Below are positions 11,075-58,381 of a stretch of 64,000 nt of DNA, piece by piece; within the stretch, counting starts at the first letter, position 1; the number at the start of each line of letters is the position of its first letter. The notes below the pieces were generated by a model, which saw only the letters and a list, made by a program, of their open reading frames with translations, did not search any database and was not told the origin of the DNA. Location: assembly GCA_029821755.1 (NCBI GenBank), contig JALGSV010000002.1, forward strand, positions 180,797 through 244,796. Reading direction: 5' to 3'. Position numbers and translations under genes: made by a program. Source of the stretch: Candidatus Zipacnadum vermilionense (GTDB lineage Bacteria > Armatimonadota > Zipacnadia > Zipacnadales > Zipacnadaceae).

Positions 11075-11815
11075 GTGTCCTCTCCCCCTCGCTCAACCCG
11101 CCGGCCGCCTCCCTTCTCCTGGCCCCAAGAGAAGCGCCGTCTGCGGGAGGAGGGGTACGAGCTGGTCGCGGGGGTGGATGAGGTGGGGGTGGGGGCGCTG
11201 GCGGGGCCGGTGGTGGCGGCGGCGGCGATTCTGCCGCTGGAGGCACGGTTCCCCGGGTTGCGCGATTCCAAGACCATGACTCCCGAGCAGCGCGAAGAGG
11301 TCTACGCGCGGGCGCTGCGGCGGGGCTTGACCTGTGCGGTGGGGCTGGCGTATGTGCAGGAAATCGACAGCCTCAACATCTTCCACGCGACGCGTCTGGC
11401 CATGAACCGGGCCGTGCACTGCCTCTCCCCTACCCCCGACTACCTGTTGATGGATGGCCACTTGCCCCCGGACTTCGGCTTGCCCTGCCGGGCGGTGGTG
11501 AAGGGCGACGCCCTGTGCCCGGCCATCTCCCTGGCTTCGATCATCGCCAAGGTCTACCGCGACCGCCTCATGTGCCGCCTATCCCTGCTTTTCCCGCACT
11601 ACTACTGGGAGGAGAACAAAGGCTACGGGACCGCCCCGCACTGCCGGGCGCTGGAGATGTACGGCCCCTGCCCGGTGCACCGACGCAGCTTCTCTCCCGT
11701 CGGACGCTTGCAGCAATTGTCGCTCGTCTTTGAGGAAACGGGGCCTGGGGAAACGTTAGGGGAAGTGGGAGAGGGTAGAATAGAGGAGGACTACGGCCGG
11801 GCAGAGGGGGAGTGA
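11075..11815 (+). CDS. rnhB: Ribonuclease HII
   Basis: AGVDEVG, DSK, LMDG, KGD...[24 protein letters not shown]; probable GTG start at 11075. Confidence 0.93.
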
Positions 11816-12459
11816 GAGGGATGAGGCGGGCGAGGGGACGGGGGTTCACGCTGATTGAGCTGCTGGTGGTGATCGGCATCATCGCCATCTTAGCAGCGCT
11901 GCTGTTTCCCGTGTTCGCCACGGCGCGGAAGAAAGCCCAGGCCGCGCAGTGCCAGTCCAACCTCAAGCAGATCGGGCTGGCCATCGAGATGTATGCCTCC
12001 GACTGGGACCAGCGCTTCCCCTTTGGCATTGACTGCGCCGACTACTACTGCCCCGAGATCTGGAACGGCTTCCCCCAGTACCAGGCGTGGATCCCCTACA
12101 TGGCTTTCGTGCATGTGGTGCTGGACCCGTATGTGAAGAACAACGAGATCTGGCACTGCTCGAGGGACAGCGGCTACGACATACTGGAGGACACCAGCCT
12201 GCCGCTCAACGGGCGGCCTACCTCGTTCGAGGCGCTGGGGAGCAGCTATCACTTTCGCACCGAGCTGGCCTTCAGCGGGGCGGGGCCGAGCACCATAGAG
12301 AACGCGACGGGGATCAATGTGATGTTCGACGCCTGGGGAGGCTGGCACGGGAGTGAGGGGTACAACCGGGGGCGCTGGAACATCCTGTTCGCCGATGGGC
12401 ACGTCAAGAGTGCAGATCGGAAGGCCTACGATGCAGCCTGGGCGACGCCAACGCAGTGA
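11812..12459 (+). CDS. Prepilin-type N-terminal cleavage/methylation protein with DUF1559-like and H-X9-DG processing motif
   Basis: G|[40 protein letters not shown]. Confidence 0.88.
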
Positions 12460-13589: not shown

Positions 13590-16500
13590 CTACTTCAACT
13601 CCACCCGCACCGTACTCATTTTCGGCACGGCGACCTCGACCTCCTGCTTGGCGGCGAGGAAGGTGGCTACCGGGAGGGTTACCGTCACTTGCAGGTCGGT
13701 GTCAGTGGGGTTGTGAACCTCTACGTAGGTCTTGCCGTCGGCGTTGCTGGGGAGGAGGGTGACCCAGACGTCCGGGTTGTCGGCGGTCACCACGTTCCCG
13801 ATATAGAGTTTCTGCTCGCCGGGCTTGGTGTCAAGGGTCGTGTACGCGGCGCCCTGCCAGACACCGAGCGGGTACCATTCGTTCTTCGCCAGATCCACCT
13901 TCGCCGCGGTCCACTTGTCGTAGATCCCTGTTACCTTGATCGGCAAGCGCTGGGGGAGGTCGGCCTGGCCGATAGTGCCGGACCAGCCGGAGTTGTCCGC
14001 GGCCAACTCCAGCAGGTAGCGACCGCTGGTGCCCTTGCCCTGGGTGGAGCGCAAGCTATAGGCCGGAGGCTGCCCGCCGATGCCATACTGGTCGCGGAAC
14101 TTGGTGAACTCGCCGATCGGATCCTCGCTGGGGGCCCCGCGGAACTTCACGTTGAGCACGCGCGCCCACGTCTTGGTCCCCGGCGCCAGGGCAGGTGTAT
14201 CGAACTGCCCCAGGTACAGGCGGAACCACTTCTTCGAGGGCACCGACTCCAGAACCACGTCCAGCTTTTCCGCCAGCAGGTACATACCCTCGCTGGCCGT
14301 AGGGAAGATGACGCAGTCCCCCGGGTGCAGCGTCCCCCGCCAGCCCTGCACCTTCTGGTCGGCGGAGGGGCCTTCCTCGTGGGTGCCGTCGGCCCGGAGG
14401 ACGATGTACTGGAACACCTTGCCGCTCCAGCTTGCCGTCCACTGCTGGGCGAAGCCGTTCCACCCCTGCTTGAGGGTGACGCCGGCGGGGTCGGTGACGG
14501 TAGTGGATAGCTCGGCCATGACCGGGGCGGGGTAGACGGGCTTGCGGTAGAAGTGCCACTGCGCCATCTCCGCCGCCACCTTCGGCTCGTCCAGGTCCAC
14601 GTAGGGGTTGTGCCCGAAGACCTCCTGGTGGGGGCCGTTGAGACTGCGCTTGAGGATGGGGGTGTCGAAGACGATGCCATCCGCTCCCTCCCAAGGACGC
14701 TGGATCCTGTGGATGGGCGGGCGGCTTTCGGTCTTAGTCGGGTCGGTGGCCTCCAGGTACATGTTGGGATTGACGCTGAACTCGGTGCCCCCGCCGGAAC
14801 CGTCAATGCCGGGCAGGCCCTCCGCCAGGGCCACGGTGCCGAAGTACAACCGCCCGGCCTTGTAGAGCATGCTGGTCGCCGGGACCAGGTGATTGCGGCC
14901 GTCAGCCTCACGGATCGTCGAGCCGCCGCTCATGATGTTGCAGCGATCCGAGCAGAAGTACTGGTACATGAGGGTGTCCTGGACCTCGGAGCTGCCCGTC
15001 ATCGCCCTATGGCCCTGCTCGTCCTCCACCACCGCGCAGAGAATGTGGCGCATGTCGTGCACGCCTTCGATGTTGATCTCCGCGGTGGTGCCAGTCAGGG
15101 CCAGGCGGCGGAAGACGCGGGTGCTGTCGTAGAAAGTCACCGACTTGAGCGGGACCTCGGAGGTCACACGCAGCGAGGCGCGCCAGCGCTCGGTGCCGGG
15201 GACGTAGAACTCGCCGTAGGTGTTGCGCATCCCGTTGGAGATGTACCAGTTGTGGATCTGTGGGCCGCTAGAGACGTAGCTGATACTGGAGCCGGAGAAC
15301 TGCGGGCGAGTGAAGGTCTCCTCCATCTGCGTGGCGTTGCCGGCGGAGATGTAGGTGTGCTCCGTTACCGCGGCAAGCTTGTCCGGGGCACTGAGCAGGT
15401 TCACCACGATGATCCGGCTGCGGTCGCCCTGCTCCTGGTTCTGCAGGAAGCCCTCGACCGCCTCGTCCACCAGCTCGCCGTCCTGGTAAGTGCGCACCGC
15501 AAAAGTGTCGTAGCCGCTGTGGAGCCAGGTAGGGTACTGGCCCTGCGAGAAGAGGAAGGGGGCGCGGCAGGGGAAGTTGCAGTCGCTCATCCAGTAGCCG
15601 AGGTGGTCCTGGACCCGCTGGGGGTCTTTCTTCGACAGGCGGCTGTCCTTGGGCCAGGACTGCGCGCCGCACTGGACAAAGTGGTTGTTCTGGTCGTCCA
15701 AGGTGATGAGGGCGGGGACGGCGACGAAGGTGTCGGTACAGGCGGCTTTGCACTCGGCGCAGAGTTGGTCCCAGGCGGCCCTGTCCATCTTGGTGAAGTC
15801 GCCGGTGAACACGAGCCAGGAGAGGCCCTGGGCCTGAGCGGCGGCGACCCATTCGGTCACGGTGCCGCTGCCGCCGCCGAGGGCGGGAGTGGCGCCGATG
15901 ACGCCCTTCCTATAGGGCAAGTCACCGCCAACTGCGCCGGGCGGGTCCCACTTGATCGGCGCGGCAACCTTAGGCTGGAAGGGCGGCTTGACCGGGGGGA
16001 CGAAGCCGCCGAACTGGCCGGCGCTGGGCTGAGTCAGCCACCTGAGGGAGGAAATCAGCAGGGGCAGGCCGTCGCTCGTGACCCCGTTCAGGCCGGCTTC
16101 CATACCAATGCGGCCCCACATGCGGTCGGCGTAGGGGGAGTAGCCGTAGCCGAAGAAGGAGATGGTGGACTCGCCGCCGTTCAGTACGACACGCCCCTGA
16201 CCAAACGGGCGGGCGGCGTAGATGACGGCGGTCTTGTCCTGGACGCCGGAGGCGAGGGGAGAGGGCGGGCCGTCCCAGGAGGGATCCTCGTAGGGGACGG
16301 ACTTGAAGCCCTCGGAGGTGCGGATGAGCGGGGTCCAGTCGGCGCTCAGGGAGAGCGGGCGGGTCCAGGGGCCGTAGGAGAAGGGGCCCACGGTATACCA
16401 GTAGTTCTTCACCCCAGCGGTGGCCGGATGGGCGGCGAGGCTGTCGGCGAGGGCGTAGAGCACCTTCTGCCCCTCCGGCTGGCGCTGTTCCTTCGGCTCG

Positions 16501-16967
16501 TCGCGCAGGAGCTCGAACAGGACCTCAGCGCCGAAGGGTTTGAGGAACTTGTTGAGGCTGTCATTGGCCCAGCCCTGGCCCATGTGGGTGAAGGAGACGC
16601 CATAGACATAGAGGCCGCCGCCCTCGGTCACGAAGCGCTGCAGTAGGTCGCTCACCCGCTTGAACCCCTCCGGGCTGATCTCGACGGCGTTGACGTCCCG
16701 CGTTCCCTCGTAGAGGCGAGACATGTCGAAGAGGATGACGGCGTTGAACTGGCTGAGCTTCTCCCAGGTGATCTCGTTGAAGCCGCAGGCGCCGACCGTG
16801 AAGCCGTAGTCCATGGTGAGCTTCTGCGGCAGGGCCCAGTCGGCCAGTTCCGAGCCCTGGTGGAGGAGCAGGACGGCGGGCCGGGCCGGGCCCTGGGCGA
16901 GGAGGGGAGCGGCCAGCAGGAGGGCAGTGAGAGAGAGCACCAGGGCGAAGGGCACGGCTCTAGGCAT
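13590..16967 (-). CDS. Large (~1125 aa) secreted multidomain hypothetical protein; possible GATase-like and PHP-like segments
   Basis: Signal peptide MPRAVPFALVLSLTALLLAAPLLA, GGAGG upstream of ATG 16967, host-like GC3. Confidence 0.75.
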   Translation of the reverse strand: MPRAVPFALVLSLTALLLAAPLLAQGPARPAVLLLHQGSELADWALPQKLTMDYGFTVGACGFNEITWEKLSQFNAVILFDMSRLYEGTRDVNAVEISPEGFKRVSDLLQRFVTEGGGLYVYGVSFTHMGQGWANDSLNKFLKPFGAEVLFELLRDEPKEQRQPEGQKVLYALADSLAAHPATAGVKNYWYTVGPFSYGPWTRPLSLSADWTPLIRTSEGFKSVPYEDPSWDGPPSPLASGVQDKTAVIYAARPFGQGRVVLNGGESTISFFGYGYSPYADRMWGRIGMEAGLNGVTSDGLPLLISSLRWLTQPSAGQFGGFVPPVKPPFQPKVAAPIKWDPPGAVGGDLPYRKGVIGATPALGGGSGTVTEWVAAAQAQGLSWLVFTGDFTKMDRAAWDQLCAECKAACTDTFVAVPALITLDDQNNHFVQCGAQSWPKDSRLSKKDPQRVQDHLGYWMSDCNFPCRAPFLFSQGQYPTWLHSGYDTFAVRTYQDGELVDEAVEGFLQNQEQGDRSRIIVVNLLSAPDKLAAVTEHTYISAGNATQMEETFTRPQFSGSSISYVSSGPQIHNWYISNGMRNTYGEFYVPGTERWRASLRVTSEVPLKSVTFYDSTRVFRRLALTGTTAEINIEGVHDMRHILCAVVEDEQGHRAMTGSSEVQDTLMYQYFCSDRCNIMSGGSTIREADGRNHLVPATSMLYKAGRLYFGTVALAEGLPGIDGSGGGTEFSVNPNMYLEATDPTKTESRPPIHRIQRPWEGADGIVFDTPILKRSLNGPHQEVFGHNPYVDLDEPKVAAEMAQWHFYRKPVYPAPVMAELSTTVTDPAGVTLKQGWNGFAQQWTASWSGKVFQYIVLRADGTHEEGPSADQKVQGWRGTLHPGDCVIFPTASEGMYLLAEKLDVVLESVPSKKWFRLYLGQFDTPALAPGTKTWARVLNVKFRGAPSEDPIGEFTKFRDQYGIGGQPPAYSLRSTQGKGTSGRYLLELAADNSGWSGTIGQADLPQRLPIKVTGIYDKWTAAKVDLAKNEWYPLGVWQGAAYTTLDTKPGEQKLYIGNVVTADNPDVWVTLLPSNADGKTYVEVHNPTDTDLQVTVTLPVATFLAAKQEVEVAVPKMSTVRVELK

Positions 16968-17139
16968 GGGAGGACCTCCATGTGGAGTATACCAACAACA
17001 GCGCCGCAGGGGTACTACGGGGTCCGGGGCACAAGGCAAGCGGGCAGGCCGAGGCCGCGGTGGTGAGCATGCAGGTGCCCGGTAGGCTAGTGGCTAATCT
17101 ATCTCCAGTTTCCCCATCCTCGCTGAGGTGAATCTCACC

Positions 17140-18672
17140 ATGCTTGCCAGGATCAACAGCGCTACCTTGCTGGGTATTGACGCCGTTGCGCTCCAGATAG
17201 AAGTGGACATAGCGCGCGGGTTGCGCAGCTTCACCATCGTGGGCCTGCCGGATGTGGCGGTGCGCGAGAGCCGCGAGCGGGTCGAGTCGGCTATCCGCAA
17301 CTCCGGGTTCGACTTCCCCATTGAGCGCATTACCGTCAACATGGCGCCGGCGGATATTCCCAAGCGCGGGCCGTCGTTTGATCTGCCCATTGCGCTGGGG
17401 ATTCTGGTGGCGACGGGGCAGGTGAGCATCGAGAACCTGGATGAAGTGGTGCTGGTCGGGGAGCTGTCGCTCGATGGGCGCATCCGGCGCATCTCGGGGG
17501 CGCTGCCGGCGGCGCTGGGGGCGAAGGAATGGGGGGCGCGAGCGCTGATCGTGGCCCCGGACAACGGGCGGGAGGCGGCGGTGGTGGAGGACCTGGAGGT
17601 GTACACCGCCGAGACGCTCTACGACTGCGTATCGCTGCTGGAGCAGGGGCTGCTGGAGGAGCCGGTGCACGTGGACCCGGCGGACCTGGCGCTGGATACA
17701 CCGCTGTATTCGGTGGACTTCGGGGATGTGAAGGGGCAGGAGCACGTTAAGCGCGCGCTGGAGGTGGCAGCGGCGGGAGGCCATAATCTCATTATGGTGG
17801 GGCCGCCGGGGAGCGGCAAGACCATGCTGGCGCGGCGGCTGCCGACCATCCTGCCGCCGATGTCGCGGGGCGAGGCGCTGGAGGTGACCAAGCTGTACAG
17901 TGTGTCGGGGCTGGTGGGGCGGGATACGGCGCTGATTACCACGCGGCCCTTCCGGCACCCGCACCATACGGTGAGCACCGCGGGGCTGGTGGGCGGGGGG
18001 AGCATCCCGCAGCCGGGGGAGGTGAGCCTGGCGCATCATGGGGTGCTGTTCCTCGATGAGCTGCCGGAGTTCTCGCGGAGCGCGTTGGAGGTGATGCGCC
18101 AGCCGCTGGAGGACGGGCACGTGACCATCGCGCGGGCGCAGCTCACACTGACCTTCCCGGCGCAGCTCCAACTGGTGGCGGCAATGAATCCCTGCCCGTG
18201 CGGGTACTTTGGGGACCAGGTGAAGCCGTGCTCCTGCACGACGGCGGCGGTGCAGCGGTACCGGAACCAGATCAGTGGGCCGCTGCTGGACCGGATCGAC
18301 ATCCACATTGAGGTGCCGCGGCTGACGCCAGATGAGCTGCTGAGCAAGCAGGTGGGGGAGCCGTCCGCGGCCATTCGCAGTCGGGTGATCGCCGCGCGAG
18401 AGCGGCAGTCGGCACGGTTTGCGGGCAAAGGGTTCTTCTGCAACGCGCAGATGGGCAGCCGGGCCCTGCGGGAGTTCTGCGGGCTGGACGGGGAGGCGGA
18501 AGCGCTGCTGCGAGCGGCGATAGACCAGTTCGCCCTCTCGGCAAGAGCGCATGACCGCATCTTGAAGCTGGCGCGGACCATAGCGGACCTGGACGGGAGC
18601 GAGGGGATAGGGGTGCCGCACCTGGCCGAGGCGGTGCAGTACCGGAGCCTGGATCGGAGGTTGTGGGGATGA
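17140..18672 (+). CDS. comM: ComM/YifB Mg-chelatase-like AAA+ helicase
   Basis: [73 protein letters not shown]. Confidence 0.95.
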
Positions 18673-18719
18673 CTGTCGGCCACTCGGACTGTTGCGTAGC
18701 GGACCCCCAAGGAGGGGAC

Positions 18720-20039
18720 ATGAACGACACGAGATCATTCACCAACATTGAATTGGGCTGGCATCTCCGCTCAGTTGACTCTCCCGTTCTTGTGCAGATT
18801 CCCACACCTAACATCGCCTACCACACGGCGGTACTAGCGCAATCTGGGGCCGGTAAGTCGTCCTTTCTCGGCAGGCTGGTTGAGGAGATATTGCTCAAGA
18901 CCAAGGCCAGGATCGTCATCATCGACTCGAACGGGGACTTTCGTAGTCTCTGGGATCCTGATGACAAGGCTTGGCAGCCCCGCGACACGGGTGAGGCGTG
19001 GCCCCGTGTGGGAGCGAACGACAAGAGCTTTGATGAATTCGGCGAAGCCTGGCACAGATGCGCAGAGGGCGACCGAACCGCCGGCGGTAGAGGCCAATAC
19101 CGCATCCACTGGCAGAGGCTATCGTCCCTCGACCAGGCCGCACTGCTAGGGATTGACCCCTCCCGTGAGCCCAAAGCGTGTGCGCTCCTCATGTGCTTGG
19201 ACGGGCACTTCAAGACGGAGATCGCCGAGAAAAAACTGGCCTTTTACGGCCCTAAGGAGGTTCTCAAGGAGGCGGCAGCCCGGCGCCATGGGGAGGCCAA
19301 GCACGATCCTGAGCTTGCAGAGGCGGCGGACCGTCTGTGGACGGCCCTCAGTATGGTCAGCGGCTGGGATGACGTATGGGCGACCGAGGACGGTGCTGGC
19401 GATTTGGGTGACATGGTCGGTTCGTCGGGCCGACGTCGGAACATAGTCGTGGACCTGCCCTCGATTGCCGCCGAAAGGGGGCGTTCTGTTACAGCTCTCC
19501 GGGTCCTCGACGCGGTGTGGAACCGCGCGCGCTGTGAGTGGGAACAGGCGATCAAGACGCGCGACACGCGTCGAGAGGGGGGTGAGGAGTGGCACGACAG
19601 GCGGACGCCCACCTTCATTGTTCTCGATGAAGCGCACAACTTCGCGCCCGACGTGGCCGCCGACCCTCTTACCGCGCTGGTATCGGATCGCGTACGCCGG
19701 ATCGCTGCGGAGGGCCGGAAGTATGGGCTGTTCCTCATTCTTGCCACGCAGCGTCCTCCAAAGGTGACGCCGGGCCTTCTCGCCGAATGCGAGAACGTCG
19801 CCTTGTTGCGCATGCAGTCTACGGTCGACCACTGCACCGCGGCGGACACGTGGGGGGTACCTTTCGAGGAGGTCGTCCGAACGCGGCACTTCGGGAAAGG
19901 GGACGGTCTGCTCTTTGGGCGATGGGTGCAAGCGGTGACACCCTTTCACAGTGCCTTCCGCCGCACCAAACAGGGCGGCAGCGACTTGGACAAGGAGTAT
20001 TGGGCTCGTCCGTTCACCCCCGAGGCAGGCGAGGAGTAA
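18720..20039 (+). CDS. HerA/FtsK-superfamily (DUF87-like) P-loop ATPase lacking an N-terminal HAS barrel
   Basis: Walker A AQSGAGKS, Walker B FIVLDEAH, EGRKYG, ATQRP; visibly lower GC3. Confidence 0.85.
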   Translation: MNDTRSFTNIELGWHLRSVDSPVLVQIPTPNIAYHTAVLAQSGAGKSSFLGRLVEEILLKTKARIVIIDSNGDFRSLWDPDDKAWQPRDTGEAWPRVGANDKSFDEFGEAWHRCAEGDRTAGGRGQYRIHWQRLSSLDQAALLGIDPSREPKACALLMCLDGHFKTEIAEKKLAFYGPKEVLKEAAARRHGEAKHDPELAEAADRLWTALSMVSGWDDVWATEDGAGDLGDMVGSSGRRRNIVVDLPSIAAERGRSVTALRVLDAVWNRARCEWEQAIKTRDTRREGGEEWHDRRTPTFIVLDEAHNFAPDVAADPLTALVSDRVRRIAAEGRKYGLFLILATQRPPKVTPGLLAECENVALLRMQSTVDHCTAADTWGVPFEEVVRTRHFGKGDGLLFGRWVQAVTPFHSAFRRTKQGGSDLDKEYWARPFTPEAGEE

Positions 20040-33035: not shown

Positions 33036-35957
33036 CTACCTCTCCCCTTCTACCACCGCGATCTCCTGCTCCGTCAGGCCGTATAGTTCGTATACCAGCG
33101 CGTCAATCTCGCGGTCGGTGGCCGCGATCTGCCGCTGGAGCAGGTGCTTGTCCGCCGGGGTGCGGGCCTGGGGCAGGCGCTGGTGCAGGTCCAGCATCCG
33201 CTCCACCAGGGCGACCATCTGATCGTGCCGTGCCACGTCGGCAGGGTCGGAGAAGTCAATGGTGCGGATGGGGAGCGAAGCCACGTTCGCTTTCTTGACC
33301 TCGGCCAGTGCCTCGCCGATCTCTGGGTTGAGCGTGTGATAATACCAGTCAAGAAGCTCGGAGTTGATGACCCCGAGGATGTACATCACAACAGGCGATT
33401 GGCTCTTGGGCACGACGACGTGCATATTGTTCAGGCAGAGAAGCTGGTCACGGTCGAGCATTGCCACCAAGCTATCGCCAGTCTGCCGCATCAGGATCTT
33501 CACGGGGGCGTCGAAGTTGGCTGCCGGACGTGGTTCCGCCAGCCAGGCCCCGTAACTAATGAACCTAGGCTTAACGGGCTGCAGGCAGTAGCGGCTGATG
33601 TCGGCCCCGCGCAGGTATGCACGGTATGTCTCATCCAGAGGGTGATCGCTGTCGAAAGGTCGCTCCGATACCACCTTCCTGGTCTGAGGAGGCTTCCCCT
33701 TCCCCGTTTGGTATGGCTTGATCCCGACGTTGATACTGCACGACTCCTCCAGTCGTCGCCCGACGCCAGCGCACTTCTCTGCCAGTGAGCGCGCCTCTTG
33801 GTCCAGGAAGATGTTGATCGGTGCCCCGCCTAGACTGATCCACTGCCGTTGCGAATGCTTAATCTTGCGCACCTGCGGCGCATCCTCTTGGCTGCGGAAC
33901 GAGGCCAGCGACGGCACTAGAGACACCAATGGCTGTGCTCCATCATGTGAGCCCGCCCGGAGCAGAACGATCTCCGTGTCAACCGTCACCTTGCGGAAGA
34001 CCGGGAACAGGAAGTGCACAATCTCGGTGACGGCCACAGAACCGGTAACCAGCTTCCGCACGGCTCCCTGCAACAGGTTCGTGAGCCAGGGGTTGGGGAT
34101 GATCATGCCGAACCTTCCGCGTGGGGCCATGAGTAACCCTATGGCTCGCTCAAGGAACAGGAGATAGCTGTCGAACTGGTAAGTCTGGCATTGGTAAGCC
34201 GAGCCGAAGTACCCTTTCTCAACTTCGCCGAAAAACGCCCCATACGGCGGATTGCCAATTACGCAATCAAACCCGCCCGCCTTCATGATCTCCGGGAATC
34301 CTCTCTCCCAGTCGAAGGGGTTCACCCGCCGCTGTTCCTCCTCGTCTATCGCCAGGCGGCCGGTGAAGTAGTCGCTGCCGATCAGGCTGTTGCCGCACTT
34401 GATGTTGGCGTCGATGTTGGGCAGCAGCCGCTCGTGCAGCAGGCGTAGGGTTTGGTCCGCCGTCTGCTCGGTGACCCCCTCCAGGCACTTGAGCAGCAGG
34501 TTGAGCTTGGTCACCTCCACCGCCTGCCGGTCAAGGTCCACCCCGTACAGGTTGTTGAGCAGGATCCGCTTGCGCTCGGAGATGGTCAGCCGCCAGTCGT
34601 CCTGCCCCAGGCGCACCACCGGCGGACGGCGTTTGCGCGCCAGCTTCTGCGGGTCGTGGGCGAGGTAGTACTTCAGGTGCCAGTCGAGCAGGAACTGGTA
34701 GGCCCCCAGGAGGAAGGAGCCGGAGCCGCAGGCGGGATCGAGAAGGCGCAGCTTGGCCGCCTTCTCCGGGGTCGCCGCCTCGGCCAGGGCCTCCCCCACC
34801 GTGTGCTCGACGATGTAGTCCACGATGTAGGTGGGGGTGTAGTAGACGCCGCCGGCCTTCTTGACCTCGGGCTTCTCCTCCACCTTGGCATAGCCAGCCG
34901 GGGTCAGGCGGATGACCTTGCCGAGGAACTGCTCATAGACCGCGCCGAGAATGTCCGCGCCGAGGACGGAGAACTCGTAGGGGCAGTCGGGGTAGTACAG
35001 GTGGCTGAGGATGGGCTTGAGGGTCTTGTCGGAGAGGGTCAGGCCGGGGCAGAGGGTATCGCCGGCGGGGCTGAAGTCGAACAGCCCGGCGTTGTACTTC
35101 TCATCGGCCTCCGAGAACAGATCGCAGAGGCCAGGATAGATACCGGGCTTCTCACCGAGTTCCCGCAGGCGGTCCTCATGCTCGACCCCCCGGTCCTCGG
35201 CGATGCGCAGGAAGAGAATCCGGTCGATGAGGGTCTGGACGGCGTAGTTCAGTTCGGGGACGGAAAGGTGGTTGTGCCGGGCGAGGTCCTTAGCCAGGCT
35301 CTCCCGCCACTTCTCGATCTCTTCCAAGAAGGCAGCGTCCACTTCCTGGGTGCCGCGGTGCTTGCGCTTGTCCTGGGCAAAGCGGTCGAAGGAGCCGCGC
35401 AGAATGCCCTCGCGGGAGAAGAGCGAGTAGAGTTCGTCGAGGTGGTCGAGGTACTGCTCGAAGGTGAAGAAGAGGATGCGGCCCAGGCCGGGAGGGTCGG
35501 TGGGCGCGGGCTTCTGGCGACAGTCGTAGACGGCGAATTCCTCGAAGTCGGTGAGGAGGGAGAGGGGGAGCTTGGCGCTCCAGGCGTAGCGCCGGAGCTG
35601 GTAAGCGGGACCGGGGTCGTCGTGGACGTTGACCGCGGGCTTCTTGGCTTCGAGGTAGAACTTGCGCTGGCCGCCGATGCGGAAGGAGTAGTCAGGGGCT
35701 TTCTTCTTCCCCTCCACGTTCACGGTGGCCTCGTGGATGACGTCTTTGTAGGCCTCGGCGTATCCCTGCCGGTTGGTCACATCCCAGCCGAGGGCCTCAA
35801 AGAAGGGGTTGAGGAATTGCAGTCGGAGTTGGGTCTCGTTGTACCCCTGGGCGCGGTACTGGTCGCGGTTGCGGCGGAAGTTGTCGACCAGTTCCTCGAC
35901 GCAGCGGCGGGTTTCGTCAGGTGCGACGAGCAGATCGGGATGGGGCGAGTCAGTCAT
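33036..35957 (-). CDS. Type IIG/IIL restriction-modification fusion (endonuclease + N6-adenine MTase + TRD)
   Basis: PDY...FYLEAKK nuclease, GVYYTP, LDPACGSGSF, VIGNPPY; start MTDSPHP at 35957. Confidence 0.92.
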   Translation of the reverse strand: MTDSPHPDLLVAPDETRRCVEELVDNFRRNRDQYRAQGYNETQLRLQFLNPFFEALGWDVTNRQGYAEAYKDVIHEATVNVEGKKKAPDYSFRIGGQRKFYLEAKKPAVNVHDDPGPAYQLRRYAWSAKLPLSLLTDFEEFAVYDCRQKPAPTDPPGLGRILFFTFEQYLDHLDELYSLFSREGILRGSFDRFAQDKRKHRGTQEVDAAFLEEIEKWRESLAKDLARHNHLSVPELNYAVQTLIDRILFLRIAEDRGVEHEDRLRELGEKPGIYPGLCDLFSEADEKYNAGLFDFSPAGDTLCPGLTLSDKTLKPILSHLYYPDCPYEFSVLGADILGAVYEQFLGKVIRLTPAGYAKVEEKPEVKKAGGVYYTPTYIVDYIVEHTVGEALAEAATPEKAAKLRLLDPACGSGSFLLGAYQFLLDWHLKYYLAHDPQKLARKRRPPVVRLGQDDWRLTISERKRILLNNLYGVDLDRQAVEVTKLNLLLKCLEGVTEQTADQTLRLLHERLLPNIDANIKCGNSLIGSDYFTGRLAIDEEEQRRVNPFDWERGFPEIMKAGGFDCVIGNPPYGAFFGEVEKGYFGSAYQCQTYQFDSYLLFLERAIGLLMAPRGRFGMIIPNPWLTNLLQGAVRKLVTGSVAVTEIVHFLFPVFRKVTVDTEIVLLRAGSHDGAQPLVSLVPSLASFRSQEDAPQVRKIKHSQRQWISLGGAPINIFLDQEARSLAEKCAGVGRRLEESCSINVGIKPYQTGKGKPPQTRKVVSERPFDSDHPLDETYRAYLRGADISRYCLQPVKPRFISYGAWLAEPRPAANFDAPVKILMRQTGDSLVAMLDRDQLLCLNNMHVVVPKSQSPVVMYILGVINSELLDWYYHTLNPEIGEALAEVKKANVASLPIRTIDFSDPADVARHDQMVALVERMLDLHQRLPQARTPADKHLLQRQIAATDREIDALVYELYGLTEQEIAVVEGER

Positions 35958-35977
35958 GGACAGGCACCTGCCTCCGA

Positions 35978-36026
35978 CGGGCCGGATTCCCCGCGCACTT
36001 CGTGCGCCGCTCATCCGGCCCCTCCC
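35978..36026 (+). repeat. Family A structured repeat between gyrA and the R-M gene
   Basis: GGGCCGGAT...GCGCAC-TTC-GTGCGC...ATCCGGCCC. Confidence 0.8.
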
Positions 36027-36034
36027 GACTTCCG

Positions 36035-38548
36035 TTATTCTTCCTCTTCGCTGTCGTTGGGCGGCGGTAGCACTTCGTCCTCTGGCTGCGGGCGTACTAT
36101 CTTGGCTATCGCCATTACCTTCTCGCCCTCGGTCGGTCGGACTACCCAGACCCCCTGCGCCGACCGGCGCGTGCGGCGGATGTTGCCTACCGGGACGCGG
36201 ATCAGCACCCCGTTGCTGGTCAGGGCCATGGCCTCGTCGTCGTCCTCCACCACCTTCGCCCCCGCCACCTGGCCGGTGCGGTCGGTGATCTCCAGGGTGA
36301 TGACGCCCTGGGTAGCCCGGCCCTTGGTCGGGTAGTCGGCCAGCGCCGTGCGCTTGCCCAGGCCATTCTCGCTGATCACCAATAGATCGCGCTCGTCGCC
36401 CTGGTTGACTACTACCATGTCGACGATCGCGTCGCCCGGCCGTAAGCGGATGGCGTGCACCCCGGCAGCGTTCCGGCCCATGGGACGAACGGTAGACTCG
36501 TTGAAGCGCACCGCCTTGCCGCCGCGAGTCACCAGGATGATGTCCTTCTCGCCGTCGGTCCAGGCCACCCACTTGAGCTTGTCGCCCGGGTGGAGGTTGA
36601 TGGCGATGAGGCCCTTGGAGCGCAGCGGGGTGTCGTAGTCCTGCAGGGAGGTTTTCTTGATCATGCCCTGCTCGGTGGCCATCAGCAGGTACCCGCCCTG
36701 GGCGAAGCCGTGGACCGGGATCTGGGAGGTGATCTGCTCGTCCTGCTCGACGGGGACGAGGTTGATCATGGGCGTGCCGCGGGCGGTGCGGCTGGCCATG
36801 GGGACCTGGTAGGCCTTGAGCTGGTAGGCCAGGCCCTTGTCAGTGAGGCAGATGATCAGATCGTGGGTGCTGGCGACGAAGAGGTCTTGCACGTCGTCCT
36901 CTTCCTTCTTGTTGAGGGCCAGCACGCCCTTGCCGCCGCGGTGCTGGACGCGGTAGGTATCGACCGGGAGGCGCTTGACGTACCCGTCGCGGGTGATGGT
37001 GATGGTCATGGCCTCGCGAGCGATGAGGTCCTCGGCGCTCAGGTCACCGGCTTCCTCCGGGATCAGCTTCGTGCGGCGCGGATCGCCCAGGTGCCTCGCG
37101 ATCGCTCGCAGCTCGTCGCGGATGATCTTGGACTTGTAGGTCTCGTCGCCCAGGATGTGCTCGTACTCGGCGATGTCCTTGAGCAGTTGGTCTCGCTCGG
37201 TGGCCAGCTCGTTGCGCGAGAGGCGAGTAAGGCGGGCCAGTTGCATGCTGAGGATGTGCTCCGCCTGCACCTCGGAGAAGTCGAACTCGGTCATCAGGCC
37301 CTGGCGAGCCTCGCCGCGGTTCTGGCTGGCCCGGATCAGGGTGATGATCTGGTCGATGATGTCCAGGGCGCGCAGCAGGCCGTCGACGATGTGGAGGCGG
37401 TCCTGCGCCTGGTTGAGCAGGTACTGGGTGCGGCGGGTAACGACGGTGCGGCGGTGCTTGAGAAACTCGCTGAGAAGGTCCTTGAGGTTGCACAGGCGGG
37501 GGACGATGACCCCACCGGGGCCCGGTACCAGGGCCAGCATGTTAGCCCCGAAGGAGGTGCGCATCAGGGTGTGCTTGTAGAGGTTGTTGAGCGTGACCTG
37601 CGGATTGGCGTCGCGCTTAAGCTCAATGACCACACGCATGCCGTTGCGGTCGGACTCGTCGCGCAGATCGGAGATGCCTTCGAGCTTGTCCTTGTCGACC
37701 AGGGAGGCGATCTGCTTGAGCAGGGCGGACTTGGAGACCTGGTAGGGCAGTTGCGAGACAATGACCGCGTTGCGCCCGCGCTCAAGGGGCTCGAGGACGG
37801 CGCGAGCCTGCATAATGATGGAGCCACGGCCGGTGGTGATGTAGTCGCGGATGCCCTTGGAGCCCAGCACCAGGCCGGCGGTGGGGAAGTCGGGGCCGGG
37901 GACGTGTTTCATCAGGTCCGCCGCGGTCAGCTCAGGGTTCTCCAGCACCGCCACAGCGGCATCGATGACCTCGCCGAGGTTGTGCGGCGGGATATTGGTG
38001 GCGTAACCCACAGCGATCCCAGCGGCCCCGTTGCAGATCAAGTTGGGGAAGGCCCCGGGCAGCACGGTGGGCTCCGTAGTCTTCTCGTCGTAGGTGGGCT
38101 GGAAGTCGACGGTGTCCTTGTCCAGGTCGGCCAGCATGGCCATGGCGACCTCGGAGAGGCGGGCCTCAGTGTAGCGGGCGGCGCCGGCCGGGTCCCCGTC
38201 CACGGAACCGAAGTTGCCCTGGGGGTCGACCTCCTGGTAGCGGGCGGCGAAATCCTGGCCCATGCGCACGAGGGTATCGTAGATGGGCGCATCGCCGTGC
38301 GGGTGGTAGGTCTTCATCGTCTCGCCGACGATGGCGGCGCACTTGGCGTGGGCGCGGTCGGGGGTGAGGCCCTCCTGCTCCATAGCCACCAGGATGCGGC
38401 GCTGGGAGGGCTTGAGCCCGTCGCGCACATCCGGCAACGCCCGCGCCATGATGGTACTCATGGCAAACTGCATGTAGGAACTGGCCATCTCCTCATGCAA
38501 GGCTACAGGCTCAATCTGGCCGATGTTCTGGTTCGGTTCGGTATCCAT
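36035..38548 (-). CDS. gyrA: DNA gyrase subunit A
   Basis: [26 protein letters not shown], GyrA-box-like QHRGGKG, beta-pinwheel repeats, acidic tail. Confidence 0.95.
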
Positions 38549-55135: not shown

Positions 55136-55368
55136 TTCTCGACATCGACCAAGATTCTCCCGGCCATGCGGTGGCCGACGGCGATCTCGGTACTACCGAT
55201 CCGCAGGGTGACCGGGCCGCGCAGGGGCTGGCCGCTGGTCTTGGTGATGCTCACTCCGGGACGCAGGCCCATGGCCCGCAGTTGCTGGTTCAGGGCCCGG
55301 CCTCCCTCGAAAGAGACAACGATTCCGCTCTGGCGAGATCTCATTTGGGCTGCAGTGGATGTCGACAT
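55132..55368 (-). CDS. feoA: Ferrous iron transport protein A
   Basis: QLRAMGLRPG..I......GPV.LRIG..EIAVG. Confidence 0.9.
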   Translation of the reverse strand: MSTSTAAQMRSRQSGIVVSFEGGRALNQQLRAMGLRPGVSITKTSGQPLRGPVTLRIGSTEIAVGHRMAGRILVDVEK

Positions 55369-55394
55369 ATATAAGCCTCCGGCACCGGCGCGGT

Positions 55395-55826
55395 CTACGC
55401 GCAACGATCGCAACAGCGAACGGTTATCTCCAGGGCCAGGGCCTGGGTGCCGAAGCCTTGCTCGCGGGCCAGCCGGCGAGCCTGTCGCTGCAGAGCCGAG
55501 GAGGGGACTTCCTCTACTCGCCCGCAGCCGGCGCAGACCAGATGGCAGTGCTCGCGCTGGGTCTCGGCGAACTCATAGTGACTATGCCCCTCGGCCAGTT
55601 GCGCTCGGCGCAGGACACCGAGGCGCTCCAATTGCCCGAGGAAGCGGTAGAGCGTGGCCCGCGAAACGGGCGCGCCCTCGCCGGTATTGACCTCGCGCAG
55701 GGCTTCCTCCGCAGAGAAATGCCGTGGCAACCCCGCTAGAAAGCGGGTGAGCCGGAGTCGGGGAGCGGTGCAACGGAGCCCGGCCTCGCGCATGGCCTCG
55801 GTGACATGCTGGGCGCGCGCGTCCAT
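55395..55826 (-). CDS. fur: Fur-family transcriptional regulator
   Basis: GLRCTAPR, HFSAEE, SRATLYR, H.HLVC.GCG, C-terminal CxxC; upstream of feoAB. Confidence 0.9.
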   Translation of the reverse strand: MDARAQHVTEAMREAGLRCTAPRLRLTRFLAGLPRHFSAEEALREVNTGEGAPVSRATLYRFLGQLERLGVLRRAQLAEGHSHYEFAETQREHCHLVCAGCGRVEEVPSSALQRQARRLAREQGFGTQALALEITVRCCDRCA

Positions 55827-55843
55827 GGTAGTCCTCTCGTTAT

Positions 55844-55893
55844 TGCGACGATGTCTCAGGTGAGATTGTTTCATAGTCGGGCGGGAATGTCAA
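55844..55893 (-). promoter_or_regulatory. fur-feoAB promoter with overlapping palindromic boxes (candidate Fur operator)
   Basis: TTGACA (55893-55888), 17 bp, AACAAT; TGAGA-ttg-TTTCA (55861-55873) and TGCGA-cgatg-TCTCA (55844-55858). Confidence 0.55.
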
Positions 55894-55936
55894 GGGGGAA
55901 GGGCAGTCGGGTGTGACCTCAGATTGTGGGTGGCTC

Positions 55937-56045
55937 CCAGGAGGGGCCGTGATGAGTTGCGCACGAAGTGCGCGGCGAATCCGGCCCGTTCTGCGCCGGC
56001 AGCGGGGCGGATTCCCGGCGCAGACGCCGCTCACCCGGCCCCTCC
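55937..56045. repeat. Inverted doublet of family A repeats (REPIN-like)
   Basis: 55937-55988 is the reverse-complement copy; 56003-56045 is a degenerate forward copy. Confidence 0.75.
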
Positions 56046-56234
56046 TTGTGTCGTCCCCTCCTCACCGACAAATGGAGGTTACACCCGTGCAGTCGACGGT
56101 GGCGGTGTCAGTGGGGAAGGCATCCCCTCCGCTCCCCACTGACACTGCCGACTGACACTGACACGGGTCCGGCAGGCATTTCCCCGAGCGTGTGGAATCT
56201 CTCTCCGGGGTATACTCTCCTCCGAGGGGGGCCT

Positions 56235-56960
56235 ATGCGACTCACAGACTCTCAAGAGCGGAAACTGCTGCTGGCGGCGTGGTGCCGGAGGTTGGCCCTG
56301 TTGCTGGAACTGGGCGTACCGGTGGTGCAGGCGGTGGAGATCGCCGGGCAGAGCGTGGGGGAGTTGAGCGAGGTCCTGCTACCGCTGTGTACGCGGGTGC
56401 GGGCCGGAGAGACACTGGGCGAGGCGATGAACGAGCAACCGGAGGACTTTCCCATCATCGCGCGGGCGGCGGTGCTGGCCGGGGAGCACATGGGACGCTT
56501 GCCGCAAGCGCTGCAGGGATTGGCGGAGTGCCTGGAGGCGGAGCGGTACCTGGAGATCCGCCCGGCAGCGATGGATCTGTGCGAGGGGATGCGGGAGCCG
56601 CCGGCGATTGAGGCGACGCGGGAGATGCTGGCGCAGGCGGCGCGGGAGGGGGCGGCAGAGCTGCAGCTAACGGCCGAGGAGGGGCGGGTGGAGGTGCGGC
56701 ACAAGCTGCACGGGCGCTGGCAGGAGGCGCCGGCGGTGGAGTCCCCCGACCCCGAGGCGATCCTGCGGCGGGTGCTGATGATGGCGGGCATCCCCTACTG
56801 GATCAAAGACCCGGCGGTGGGGACGATGCGGGTGTGGATCGAGCAGCGCAAGTACGAGATAGGGGTGCGAGCGATCCCGGCGGAGGAGGGCGGCTGGGAG
56901 AGCCTGGAGCTAAGCCTGCGGCCGGTGTCGCCAGGGACGGAGGGGGAGGAGTGGGCTTGA
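56235..56960 (+). CDS. Soluble fusion: PilC/GspF cytoplasmic domain + degenerate PilB/GspE N2 domain
   Basis: RRLALLLELGVPV.QA...GETLGEAM...PEDF...V.AGE.MG.LPQ.L..LA..LE; then PPAIE..REML.QA..EGAAELQL..E...VEVRH.LHG...; no TM, no Walker A. Confidence 0.75.
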   Translation: MRLTDSQERKLLLAAWCRRLALLLELGVPVVQAVEIAGQSVGELSEVLLPLCTRVRAGETLGEAMNEQPEDFPIIARAAVLAGEHMGRLPQALQGLAECLEAERYLEIRPAAMDLCEGMREPPAIEATREMLAQAAREGAAELQLTAEEGRVEVRHKLHGRWQEAPAVESPDPEAILRRVLMMAGIPYWIKDPAVGTMRVWIEQRKYEIGVRAIPAEEGGWESLELSLRPVSPGTEGEEWA

Positions 56961-56965
56961 GGGGG

Positions 56966-57019
56966 AAAAGGGGGCAGACACTATTCTCCGTCGTGGAAGA
57001 TAGTGTCTGCCCCCTTTTT
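56966..57019. terminator. Bidirectional intrinsic terminator-like hairpin between convergent genes
   Basis: Perfect 19-bp stem AAAAGGGGGCAGACACTAT (56966-56984) / ATAGTGTCTGCCCCCTTTT (57000-57018). Confidence 0.8.
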
Positions 57020-58381
57020 CGGACCGGCAATCGCCTTCGCCGCCGCGAGCCCCGACGCCGAGGCCTGCATTAGGCCGCGGGTGAGGCCGGCGCCGTCGCC
57101 ACAGGCATATAGACCCAGGACCTGCGTCTCCAGTTCCGGCGTGACCCGCAGGCGCGAGGAGTAAAGCTTCACCTCGATGCCGTAGAGAAGCGTGTGGGCG
57201 TCCGCCACCCCCGGCATGAACTGGTCGAGGGCCCCCATCATCTCCATGATCGTGCCCAGGTGCCGGTAGGGCAGGACGTAGCTGAGGTCGCCGGGCGTGG
57301 CCTCGGCGAGGGTGGGGACTACGTTGCTGTTGCGCAGGCGCGAGGGAGTGCTGCGATGGCCGGAGCGCAGGTCGCCCAGGCGCTGCACCAACACCCCTTC
57401 CCCCAGCAGATTAGCCAGGCGAGCGATGTACTGGCCGTAGGCGATGGGGTCGTCGAAGGGCTCCGTGAAGCGGCTGGTGACCAGCACCGCGAAGTTGGTG
57501 TTGTCGCTCAGTTTGACCGAGGTGGAGTGGCCGTTGACGGTGATCACGTCGCTCTGCTCAACCGTGACCACCTCGCCGTAGGGGCAGACACAGAAGGTGC
57601 GCACCAGGTTGTCGAACTGGCGCGACCAGTAGCGCAACTTGAACTCAAAGAGGACGTCGGTGACCTCGGAGGTGAGCGCGGCGGGGACCTCCACGCGCAC
57701 GCCCAGGTCCACCGGCCCCGGCTGGGTCTCCAGGCCCAGCCGCTGGGCCTCATGCCACAGCCACTCCGCCCCGCTGCGGCCCGGGGCGAGGATGACTGCC
57801 CGCGCGCCCAGGCGGCCCGAGGCGGTGACGACGCCGGTGACCCGTCCGTCGGTGACCTCCACCTGCTCCACCTCGGTCTCCAGGAGCACGTCCACGCGGG
57901 AGGCGAGGTACTCCCGCATGGCCCCGAGGACCAAGGGTGTGCGGTCCGAGCCGATATGGCGCAGGGGCATCGGGGCCAGGCGCATTCCGGCCCGCGTCGC
58001 CCGTCGGGCCAGGTCCTCCGTGGCCGAGGTGGTCTCGCCGAAGACCTCCACCGGAGAGCCGTACTCCAGCCACAGGCGATCGGCCTCGGCCAGGAGCGCG
58101 GTCGCCGGGCCGTCGCCGACCATCTCCGGGAGCTGCCCGCCTACCTCGGGACTGAGGGTCAGCTTTCCATCGCAGAAGGCCCCGGCCCCGCCGAAGCCCT
58201 CCAGCATGGCCTTGCGCTTGCTGCCGCCGGCCCAGTGGGTTTCGCGCGCGGTCACGCGGCCGGGGAGGTCCAGGCCGCGGTCGAGGAGGGCCACGCGGAG
58301 GCCCGGCTGGCGGGACAGCTCCAGCGCGGCGAAGATGCCGGCCGGTCCGGCGCCCACGATGATAACGTCGTAGTCAGGCAT
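56981..58381 (-). CDS. NAD(P)/FAD-dependent oxidoreductase (COG2509-like)
   Basis: IVGAGPAG, GFGGAGAFCDGKL, GVRVE, RTFCVCP.G, GDGAG.TRGL. Confidence 0.9.
   Translation of the reverse strand: MPDYDVIIVGAGPAGIFAALELSRQPGLRVALLDRGLDLPGRVTARETHWAGGSKRKAMLEGFGGAGAFCDGKLTLSPEVGGQLPEMVGDGPATALLAEADRLWLEYGSPVEVFGETTSATEDLARRATRAGMRLAPMPLRHIGSDRTPLVLGAMREYLASRVDVLLETEVEQVEVTDGRVTGVVTASGRLGARAVILAPGRSGAEWLWHEAQRLGLETQPGPVDLGVRVEVPAALTSEVTDVLFEFKLRYWSRQFDNLVRTFCVCPYGEVVTVEQSDVITVNGHSTSVKLSDNTNFAVLVTSRFTEPFDDPIAYGQYIARLANLLGEGVLVQRLGDLRSGHRSTPSRLRNSNVVPTLAEATPGDLSYVLPYRHLGTIMEMMGALDQFMPGVADAHTLLYGIEVKLYSSRLRVTPELETQVLGLYACGDGAGLTRGLMQASASGLAAAKAIAGPKKGADTIFHDGE

Follow-up and report, generated by a model that had tools for sequence, protein, structure and literature searches.

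What might a small protein do that joins, in one soluble chain, a domain of the type IV pilus platform and a domain of the pilus motor? This question is raised by a gene for a 241-amino-acid (aa) protein of Candidatus Zipacnadum vermilionense, which lies in a stretch of 64,000 nucleotides of contig JALGSV010000002.1 (GenBank assembly GCA_029821755.1, positions 180,797 to 244,796), referred to below as the window. The grip of the motor ATPases PilB/GspE on the PilC/GspF platform is known from models alone. A first-pass annotation, made by reading the DNA letters, had interpreted the protein as a fusion of the PilC/GspF cytoplasmic bundle (family T2SSF) with the N2 domain of PilB/GspE, and our analysis indicates that both the protein as such and the pair of domains are almost certainly genuine. 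The parts of the gene referred to throughout are given below, in positions of the window.

56235–56960, + strand: coding sequence of the 241-aa soluble two-domain protein, from the ATG at 56235 to the TGA at 56960, stop included
56280–56561, + strand: T2SSF (PilC/GspF cytoplasmic helical-bundle) domain, residues 16–109, identified by Pfam PF00482
56553–56597, + strand: flexible inter-domain linker, residues about 107–121 (~15 residues), identified by low model confidence
56598–56930, + strand: PilB/GspE N2-like domain (α1, β1–3, α2, β4–6), residues about 122–232, identified by the family profile, Foldseek and TIGR02533
56751–56822, + strand: α2 helix and α2-β4 loop, residues 173–196 (RRvLMMAGIPYWIkdPAVG), identified in the family alignment

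Architecture of the 241-aa protein

The N-terminal half is a T2SSF bundle. Pfam gave PF00482 there, as the first-pass annotation had expected, at residues 16–109 with E = 1.8e-15 and 57.5 bits (cut-off, 25.2). Residues 13–106 aligned with the first cytoplasmic domain of GspF/PilC/HofC in local NCBIfam matches and, at 25–28% identity, with the cytoplasmic domains of EpsF, OutF, and PilC in a sequence search of the PDB. When the first AlphaFold2 (AF2) model was searched with Foldseek, this half matched the EpsF/OutF cytoplasmic domains (E about 1e-4). The bundle was predicted as six helices, mostly with a predicted local distance difference test score (pLDDT) > 90, and it retains the T2SSF signature residues R56, G58-E59, F72, and A82-G83-E84. 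Its fold and Pfam family are those of domain 1 of the PilC/GspF platform (EpsF 2VMA/3C1Q, OutF 5NBG, and T. thermophilus PilC 2WHN). However, the 241-aa protein has one T2SSF domain instead of two and no transmembrane (TM) helix, and the N2 domain is found where TM1 would be. Compared with the GspF/PilC equivalogs, it reached 48.5 bits with TIGR02120 (cut-off, 424) and 28–32 bits with the PilC models (cut-off, 700), in a single local stretch. All of the predicted helices ahead of the N2-like domain fall in the T2SSF half (residues 5–106). The maximum Kyte-Doolittle hydropathy over 19 residues is 1.73, within helix 1 of the bundle, whereas real PilC TM helices reach about 3.0, which bears out the earlier claim that there is no membrane anchor. 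The protein is soluble and cytoplasmic, without a TM helix.

The C-terminal half gave weak matches when searched as a single sequence: the GspE model TIGR02533 at E = 1.2e-5 (profile positions 86–205), EpsE (1p9r) at E = 1.3e-3 in the PDB sequence search, and Pfam T2SSE below threshold, at 10.5 bits vs. 24.9 (profile positions 7–104 of 370). A profile of 13 family sequences covered the entire N2 domain of EpsE (E = 5.5e-12) and matched the N2 domains of three PilB proteins (E = 3e-10 to 2e-9), and in the Foldseek search of the first AF2 model this half matched the N2 domains of EpsE/PilB/PilF (E = 4e-7 to 1e-5). The family profile against EpsE and the Foldseek result confirm the N2 domain that had been proposed here, so the half does not have the unrelated fold that had been considered as an alternative. 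It shares the α/β fold of the PilB/GspE N2 domain (EpsE 1P9R/4KSR, PilB 5TSG/5ZFR, and PilF 5IT5) along its entire length. About 10 residues past the last N2 strand (β6), the chain comes to its end, with no C-terminal RecA-like ATPase domain. In contrast to PilB/GspE, the protein has neither an N1/GSPII domain nor a C-terminal domain (CTD), and hence no Walker A/B, no Asp box, and no His box. It is outside both the PilC/GspF platform family and the PilB/GspE ATPase family, and is a domain-level relative of both.

The canonical motifs of the N2 domain are replaced in this protein: AAELQ occurs for ASDIH, KLHGRW for RxRxDG, and IPYWIKDPAVGTM for ERRxPQDGR. In ten compared canonical sequences, ASDIH and RxRxDG were present in all ten and PQDGR in nine, the tenth reading PLDGR. 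The first-pass annotation had correctly read the change of ASDIH to AAELQ, the KLHG in the place of RxDG, and the stop where the ATPase would start. The densest invariant block of the N2-like half consists of R178, R179, A184, I186, P187, Y188, W189, I190, V195, and G196, and R212, which corresponds to the Arg of the β5 motif xRVSTxP, is also invariant.

Both domains were modeled with confidence, with a pLDDT of 82.6 in the first AF2 run and 86.7 in the second, for which an alignment of 36 sequences was used. The linker had pLDDT values < 50 at residues 107–119 in one run and 109–116 in the other. The predicted template-modeling score (pTM) was 0.49 and 0.51. Because of these low pTM values and the disordered linker, the relative orientation of the two domains is undefined despite the confident domains; the deeper alignment raised the pLDDT, yet no defined inter-domain packing emerged.

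In a published, high-confidence AF2-multimer model of PulE6:PulF3, each cytoplasmic (Cyto) domain of the platform pairs with one N2 domain (N2D) of the motor (PMC10790770). The contact is made by the α2 helix and α2-β4 loop of the N2D, and the surfaces that meet there are the conserved ones on each partner (PMC10790770). This model backs the premise, stated in the first-pass annotation, that the cytoplasmic domain of the platform meets the N2 domain of the motor, and because it pairs Cyto with N2D, the 241-aa protein can be regarded as a one-chain version of that pair. In PulE6:PulF3, the domains are on separate proteins, one located in the membrane and the other belonging to an active hexamer, whereas the 241-aa protein is tethered, soluble, and motorless, and its N2-like half has rewritten precisely the helix and loop that bind the platform in the model. 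Two further systems offer points of comparison. Within the PilB/GspE hexamer, each N2D is packed against the CTD of the neighboring chain (PMC5424180). TadB and TadC have one T2SSF domain per polypeptide, from the fission of a two-domain ancestor (PMC6668835), but unlike the 241-aa protein, they are polytopic membrane proteins without an N2 domain.

Conservation of the family and its longer relatives

The protein database contained 18 further full-length homologues with about 36–87% identity, 14 of which were exactly 241 aa long. A scan of one genome per species yielded 14 loci of the family; ten of these had the taxon labels Armatimonadota, Armatimonadia, or Candidatus Zipacnadia (a class of Armatimonadota), and two were labeled candidate division WS1. 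The full-length orthologues with 241 aa numbered about 30 in total. Conservation of the full-length 241-aa architecture reached down to 35–37% identity, and nearly all of the members were from metagenome-assembled genomes labeled Armatimonadota. Some members had been labeled “GspE/PilB-like” or “TadA, partial” by automated pipelines. The family alignment had 42 invariant positions distributed across both halves, and the features common to the query and the 18 homologues were W16/R18, G58, RR178-179, IPYWI186-190, VRA211-213, and collinearity over the full length. Six orthologous coding sequences were free of gaps and frameshifts, with ratios of nonsynonymous to synonymous substitution (dN/dS) of 0.15–0.40 at a dS of about 0.8–1.5. 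By half, dN/dS was 0.09–0.27 for T2SSF, which was the more constrained, and 0.20–0.61 for N2, and the highest values were in the linker segment. Both halves are under purifying selection.

We also considered whether the gene might be a remnant in decay, a chimera of the assembly, or an open reading frame (ORF) called in error. Such an origin would fit the loss of the canonical N2 motifs and the sub-threshold single-sequence Pfam T2SSE match of 10.5 bits. It is excluded by the many independent assemblies, the absence of frameshifts, the dN/dS values, the confident AF2 halves, and the native base composition, so its probability is negligible. The first-pass annotation had named a lack of intact homologues as the mark of a recent chimeric pseudogene or an assembly chimera, and intact homologues proved to be numerous.

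Longer relatives were collected with an exhaustive profile search over 1.84 billion representatives and sorted by Pfam and by our own domain maps. Single profile stretches spanned the bundle, linker, and N2 domain in relatives of about 360 and about 610 aa; single hidden Markov model stretches over query residues about 9–230 were found in P0023, P0024, P0028, P0047, and others. The bundle-linker-N2 junction is therefore collinear with that of the 241-aa protein. The long forms (about 600–750 aa; e.g., P0177, P0180, and P0028) have two soluble T2SSF domains, then N2, and then a full T2SSE ATPase. The middle forms (about 353–391 aa; e.g., P0289, P0287, and P0023) are (T2SSF)2-N2 with nothing further; as a conserved family, they are 34–53% identical to the query P0023. 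The search also gave a small number of other short forms (P0051, P0025, and P0029). These longer relatives differ from the 241-aa family in their extra N-terminal T2SSF domain, sometimes an ATPase, and usually a neighboring extracytoplasmic function (ECF) sigma/anti-sigma pair, none of which the 241-aa family has. They come from metagenomes, and the single longer form with a taxon label is from Armatimonadetes.

The long forms were of two kinds. In P0177, P0180, P0182, P0206, P0276, and others, the ATPase motifs are intact (GSGKTT in Walker A, GE(I/V)RD in Walker B, and the His box for the most part). In P0026, P0028, P0033, P0046, P0047, P0057, and P0131, the Walker A Lys is changed to Arg, the Walker B Glu to Asp, or the His box is lost, in varying combinations, and judging from these motifs they look like pseudo-ATPases. 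The long forms that scored best against the profile of the 241-aa family belong to this degenerate set. The α2-β4 loop reads LNVAERRLPQDGRI in canonical proteins, LNVGEWCVPQRGLI in the degenerate long forms, INPFVREVCTGQI in the ATPase-less middle forms with a double T2SSF, and IPYWIKDPAVGTM in the 241-aa family, which shares with these middle forms an aromatic residue in the rewritten loop. This graded series may be read as the progressive reduction of a motor-platform fusion, and we infer that the 241-aa form, having lost the ATPase and the first T2SSF domain, is its minimal member. In a neighbor-joining tree of N2 domains, all of the ATPase-less forms were grouped on long branches without readable bootstrap values, a topology that does not separate descent from the long forms from mere resemblance to them. 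In a neighbor-joining tree of T2SSF domains, the bootstrap values of the deep nodes were < 30, too low to fix the direction of change; as a weak hint, the 241-aa bundle was placed beside a cluster containing PilC domain 2 and, from the longer forms, the N2-proximal bundles.

Among the longer relatives with readable flanks, most were the third gene, abutting or overlapping, behind genes for an ECF sigma factor and a zf-HC2 anti-sigma factor. Such operons contained two intact-motif long forms (L018 and L019/L020) and three middle forms (L022–L027), in three genomic backgrounds, as follows.

L018, 8974–11842: ECF sigma/anti-sigma/(T2SSF)2-N2-ATPase operon
L019/L020, 8975–11848: ECF sigma/anti-sigma/(T2SSF)2-N2-ATPase operon
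L022/L023 and L024, 7116–9128: ECF sigma/anti-sigma/(T2SSF)2-N2 operon; also in L025 and L026/L027

In L026/L027, no product with a sigma domain was called upstream of the anti-sigma gene, and long form L021 was without a sigma/anti-sigma pair. The contig of P0028, the closest long relative, begins at the gene itself, so its genomic context gave no information. The anti-sigma factors of these operons are 107–155 aa long and have no TM segment (Kyte-Doolittle maxima of 0.3–1.2). The combination of an ECF sigma factor, a soluble anti-sigma factor, and (T2SSF)2-N2(-ATPase) may represent a sigma-factor module of a type not yet described, and the link suggests an undescribed kind of sigma-factor control.

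The 241-aa genes themselves occurred in other contexts. In the close clade (60–87% identity), a divergent pairing with fur-feoA-feoB was found in six of six loci, even where both outer flanks were different (L003 and L006). The distant clade (35–38% identity) was without fur-feoAB; there, the order was a gene for an SPFH/Band-7-zinc-ribbon protein, an FMN reductase gene, the 241-aa gene, and a gene for a Bac_transf polyprenyl-phosphate sugar transferase (L007, L008, L010, L014, L017, and L028; an ORF for the FMN reductase could not be located in L010 or L017), and one member of the clade had yet another gene context.

The first-pass annotation had named no described architecture of this kind. 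In our literature searches, neither a fusion of T2SSF with N2 or with an ATPase, nor a GspF domain in soluble form, nor a link to ECF factors was found to have been described, and the lineage of motor-platform fusion proteins is apparently undescribed; however, the 241-aa protein is not isolated, but is the shortest form of this wider lineage. Neither its fold nor its chemistry is new. As a natural fusion, it has a bearing on a structural question: the occurrence of T2SSF and N2 in one chain, here and likewise in the ATPase-bearing relatives, provides independent “Rosetta-stone” support for the one-to-one pairing of Cyto and N2D, and the family is a source of small, soluble constructs with which the motor-platform interface could be studied structurally and in binding work. 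If the series is read from an active-looking ATPase, to a degenerate one, to none, and finally to a single bundle, it would represent a machine whittled down to a binding protein.

Possible roles of the 241-aa protein

Based on its domains, we tentatively propose that the 241-aa protein is a non-enzymatic decoy or adaptor at the motor/platform interface of type IV filaments, and we give this proposal somewhat less than an even chance of being correct. The protein would act purely by binding where motors engage the platform. Its T2SSF half would occupy the N2 domains of the PilB/PilT-type ATPases of the cell in place of membrane PilC, and its N2-like half would bind a second partner through the invariant IPYWI loop; this partner could be a platform-type domain, a further copy of the 241-aa protein, or a lineage-specific protein. 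As a net effect, the motor and the platform would be uncoupled, gated, or bridged in pilus or pseudopilus assembly. The bundle has kept its signature residues, is the half under greater constraint, and plausibly still binds motor N2 domains, and the invariant IPYWI in place of the platform-facing loop implies a conserved but altered partner. Additionally, the window contains an ORF for a prepilin-type protein (11812–12459, + strand) with an N-terminal methylation motif and a DUF1559 domain, and this DUF1559/N_methyl pseudopilin means that the organism has type IV pilin-like substrates. Several results weigh against the proposal. No pilus or type II secretion system (T2SS)/secretion gene was adjacent to family members in the about 20 loci examined, and no homologue of PilB, PilC, or PilT was found in the 64-kb window. 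Most of the longer relatives with readable flanks are tied to ECF sigma/anti-sigma genes and not to pili. With the loss of ASDIH, RxRxDG, and PQDGR from the N2 half, the canonical contacts may be gone, and the AF2 models, with a pTM of about 0.5, had no fixed cis arrangement of the bundle and N2.

Because most of the readable longer relatives are in operons with ECF pairs and not with pilus genes, a pilus-independent role has to be taken seriously. The motor and platform domains would then have been exapted as binding modules for signaling or scaffolding, with the 241-aa form acting on an unlinked regulator. We consider this somewhat unlikely. The position of the longer relatives as third genes in ECF sigma/zf-HC2 operons in three backgrounds, with anti-sigma factors that have no TM segment, is in keeping with it; many long forms have degenerate Walker A/B motifs and have lost the His box, which points to a non-motor use, and no family member is inside a pilus cluster. 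However, no sigma or anti-sigma homologue was found in the window or beside any 241-aa family member examined, other long forms retain all of the catalytic motifs, L021 is without the sigma pair, and the T2SSF half of the 241-aa protein retains the signature expected for motor binding. The 241-aa protein had no match to defense systems in PADLOC or to phage families in PHROGs, and Pfam gave T2SSF and T2SSE alone, with no match to known PilB regulators (the c-di-GMP modules PilZ, FimX, and MshEN, or the phage proteins Tip/Aqs1). A broader version of the signaling role would extend to the whole lineage, as a cytoplasmic regulatory system derived from a fused motor-platform pair and reused as the third component of ECF sigma/soluble anti-sigma modules; the membrane part and often catalysis would have been lost, and in the 241-aa form, a minimal sensor or adaptor would stand on its own. 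This version is unlikely, but if it is true, the lineage is a signaling device derived from the pilus machine, and not a part of the pilus.

In another reading, the protein would self-assemble: the bundle of one chain would bind the N2-like domain of the next, head to tail, to form a ring or filament scaffold that might, for example, replace missing motor-docking parts. Both halves of the predicted heterotypic interface are indeed present on one flexible tether (AF2; PMC10790770), and they co-vary as one family with its own invariant motifs, but the N2 loop is far from the canonical platform-binding loop, and we regard such a scaffold as distinctly unlikely. An iron-linked function was considered as well, in which co-regulation with fur-feoAB would couple iron status to a surface or uptake process. 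The retention of fur-feoA-feoB divergence in all six close-clade loci, with differing outer flanks, is consistent with this, as is a conserved palindrome in the shared intergenic region (TTGAGAC-N3-GTCTCAA). However, the palindrome belongs to the fur end of the spacer, where the promoter and start of fur are, conservation is lacking in the stretch closest to the 241-aa gene, and the distant clade is without fur-feoAB, so that the linkage may be no more than inherited synteny; an iron-linked function is very unlikely.

The locus and other features of the window

The 241-aa gene is monocistronic, with the divergent fur-feoA-feoB genes upstream and a convergent FAD-oxidoreductase gene downstream. 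The following features were found around it.

56211–56216, + strand: putative −10-like box TATACT, by direct reading of the sequence
56224–56231, + strand: putative Shine-Dalgarno sequence GAGGGGGG, by direct reading of the sequence
56964–57020, no strand: long GC-rich hairpin of 57 nt between the convergent genes, by RNA folding, followed by a T run

The promoter scanner made no call at the −10-like box. The hairpin has a predicted free energy of −42.7 kcal/mol (z = −8.0), and none of 200 shuffled sequences was equally stable. It is likely to be a bidirectional terminator. A simple consensus scan for terminators found nothing, and the hairpin was seen by direct folding instead; a search of 55300–57300 against Rfam gave sub-threshold matches of microRNA models to the hairpin and nothing else. 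These results agree with the first-pass annotation, which had described the gene as monocistronic, divergent from fur-feoAB, and followed by a strong terminator. Three TGACAC(TG) repeats stand close together at 56140–56164, in the long spacer 5′ of the 241-aa gene, and they are missing from the shorter spacers at the orthologous loci.

The palindrome on the fur side is 17 bp long, is located at 55843–55859, and reads TTGCGACGATGTCTCAG in the window, where it occurs as a single copy. Its core is invariant across six orthologous spacers (upstream of fur also in L001–L004 and L006). On one side of it is a sigma-70-like promoter on the minus strand (TTGACA-17-AACAAT, 55893..55865) and on the other the fur start; this position, just downstream of the promoter and just upstream of fur, gives it the look of an operator on the fur side. 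The palindrome probably serves this lineage as its Fur auto-operator and does not resemble the AT-rich Fur box of the classical kind. The listed fur ORF (55395–55874, − strand, 159 aa) begins upstream of the −10 box that is predicted for it. The true start is probably the ATG at 55826 (MDARAQ...), which gives a protein of about 144 aa; homologues elsewhere are 151–153 aa long.

Elsewhere in the window, two adjacent large ORFs at 13590–17039 and 16960–18738 (both − strand) encode products of 1148 and 591 aa with no Pfam match, and the ORF at 33036–36572 (− strand) encodes a fused restriction-modification enzyme of the Eco57I/MmeI type, of 1177 aa.

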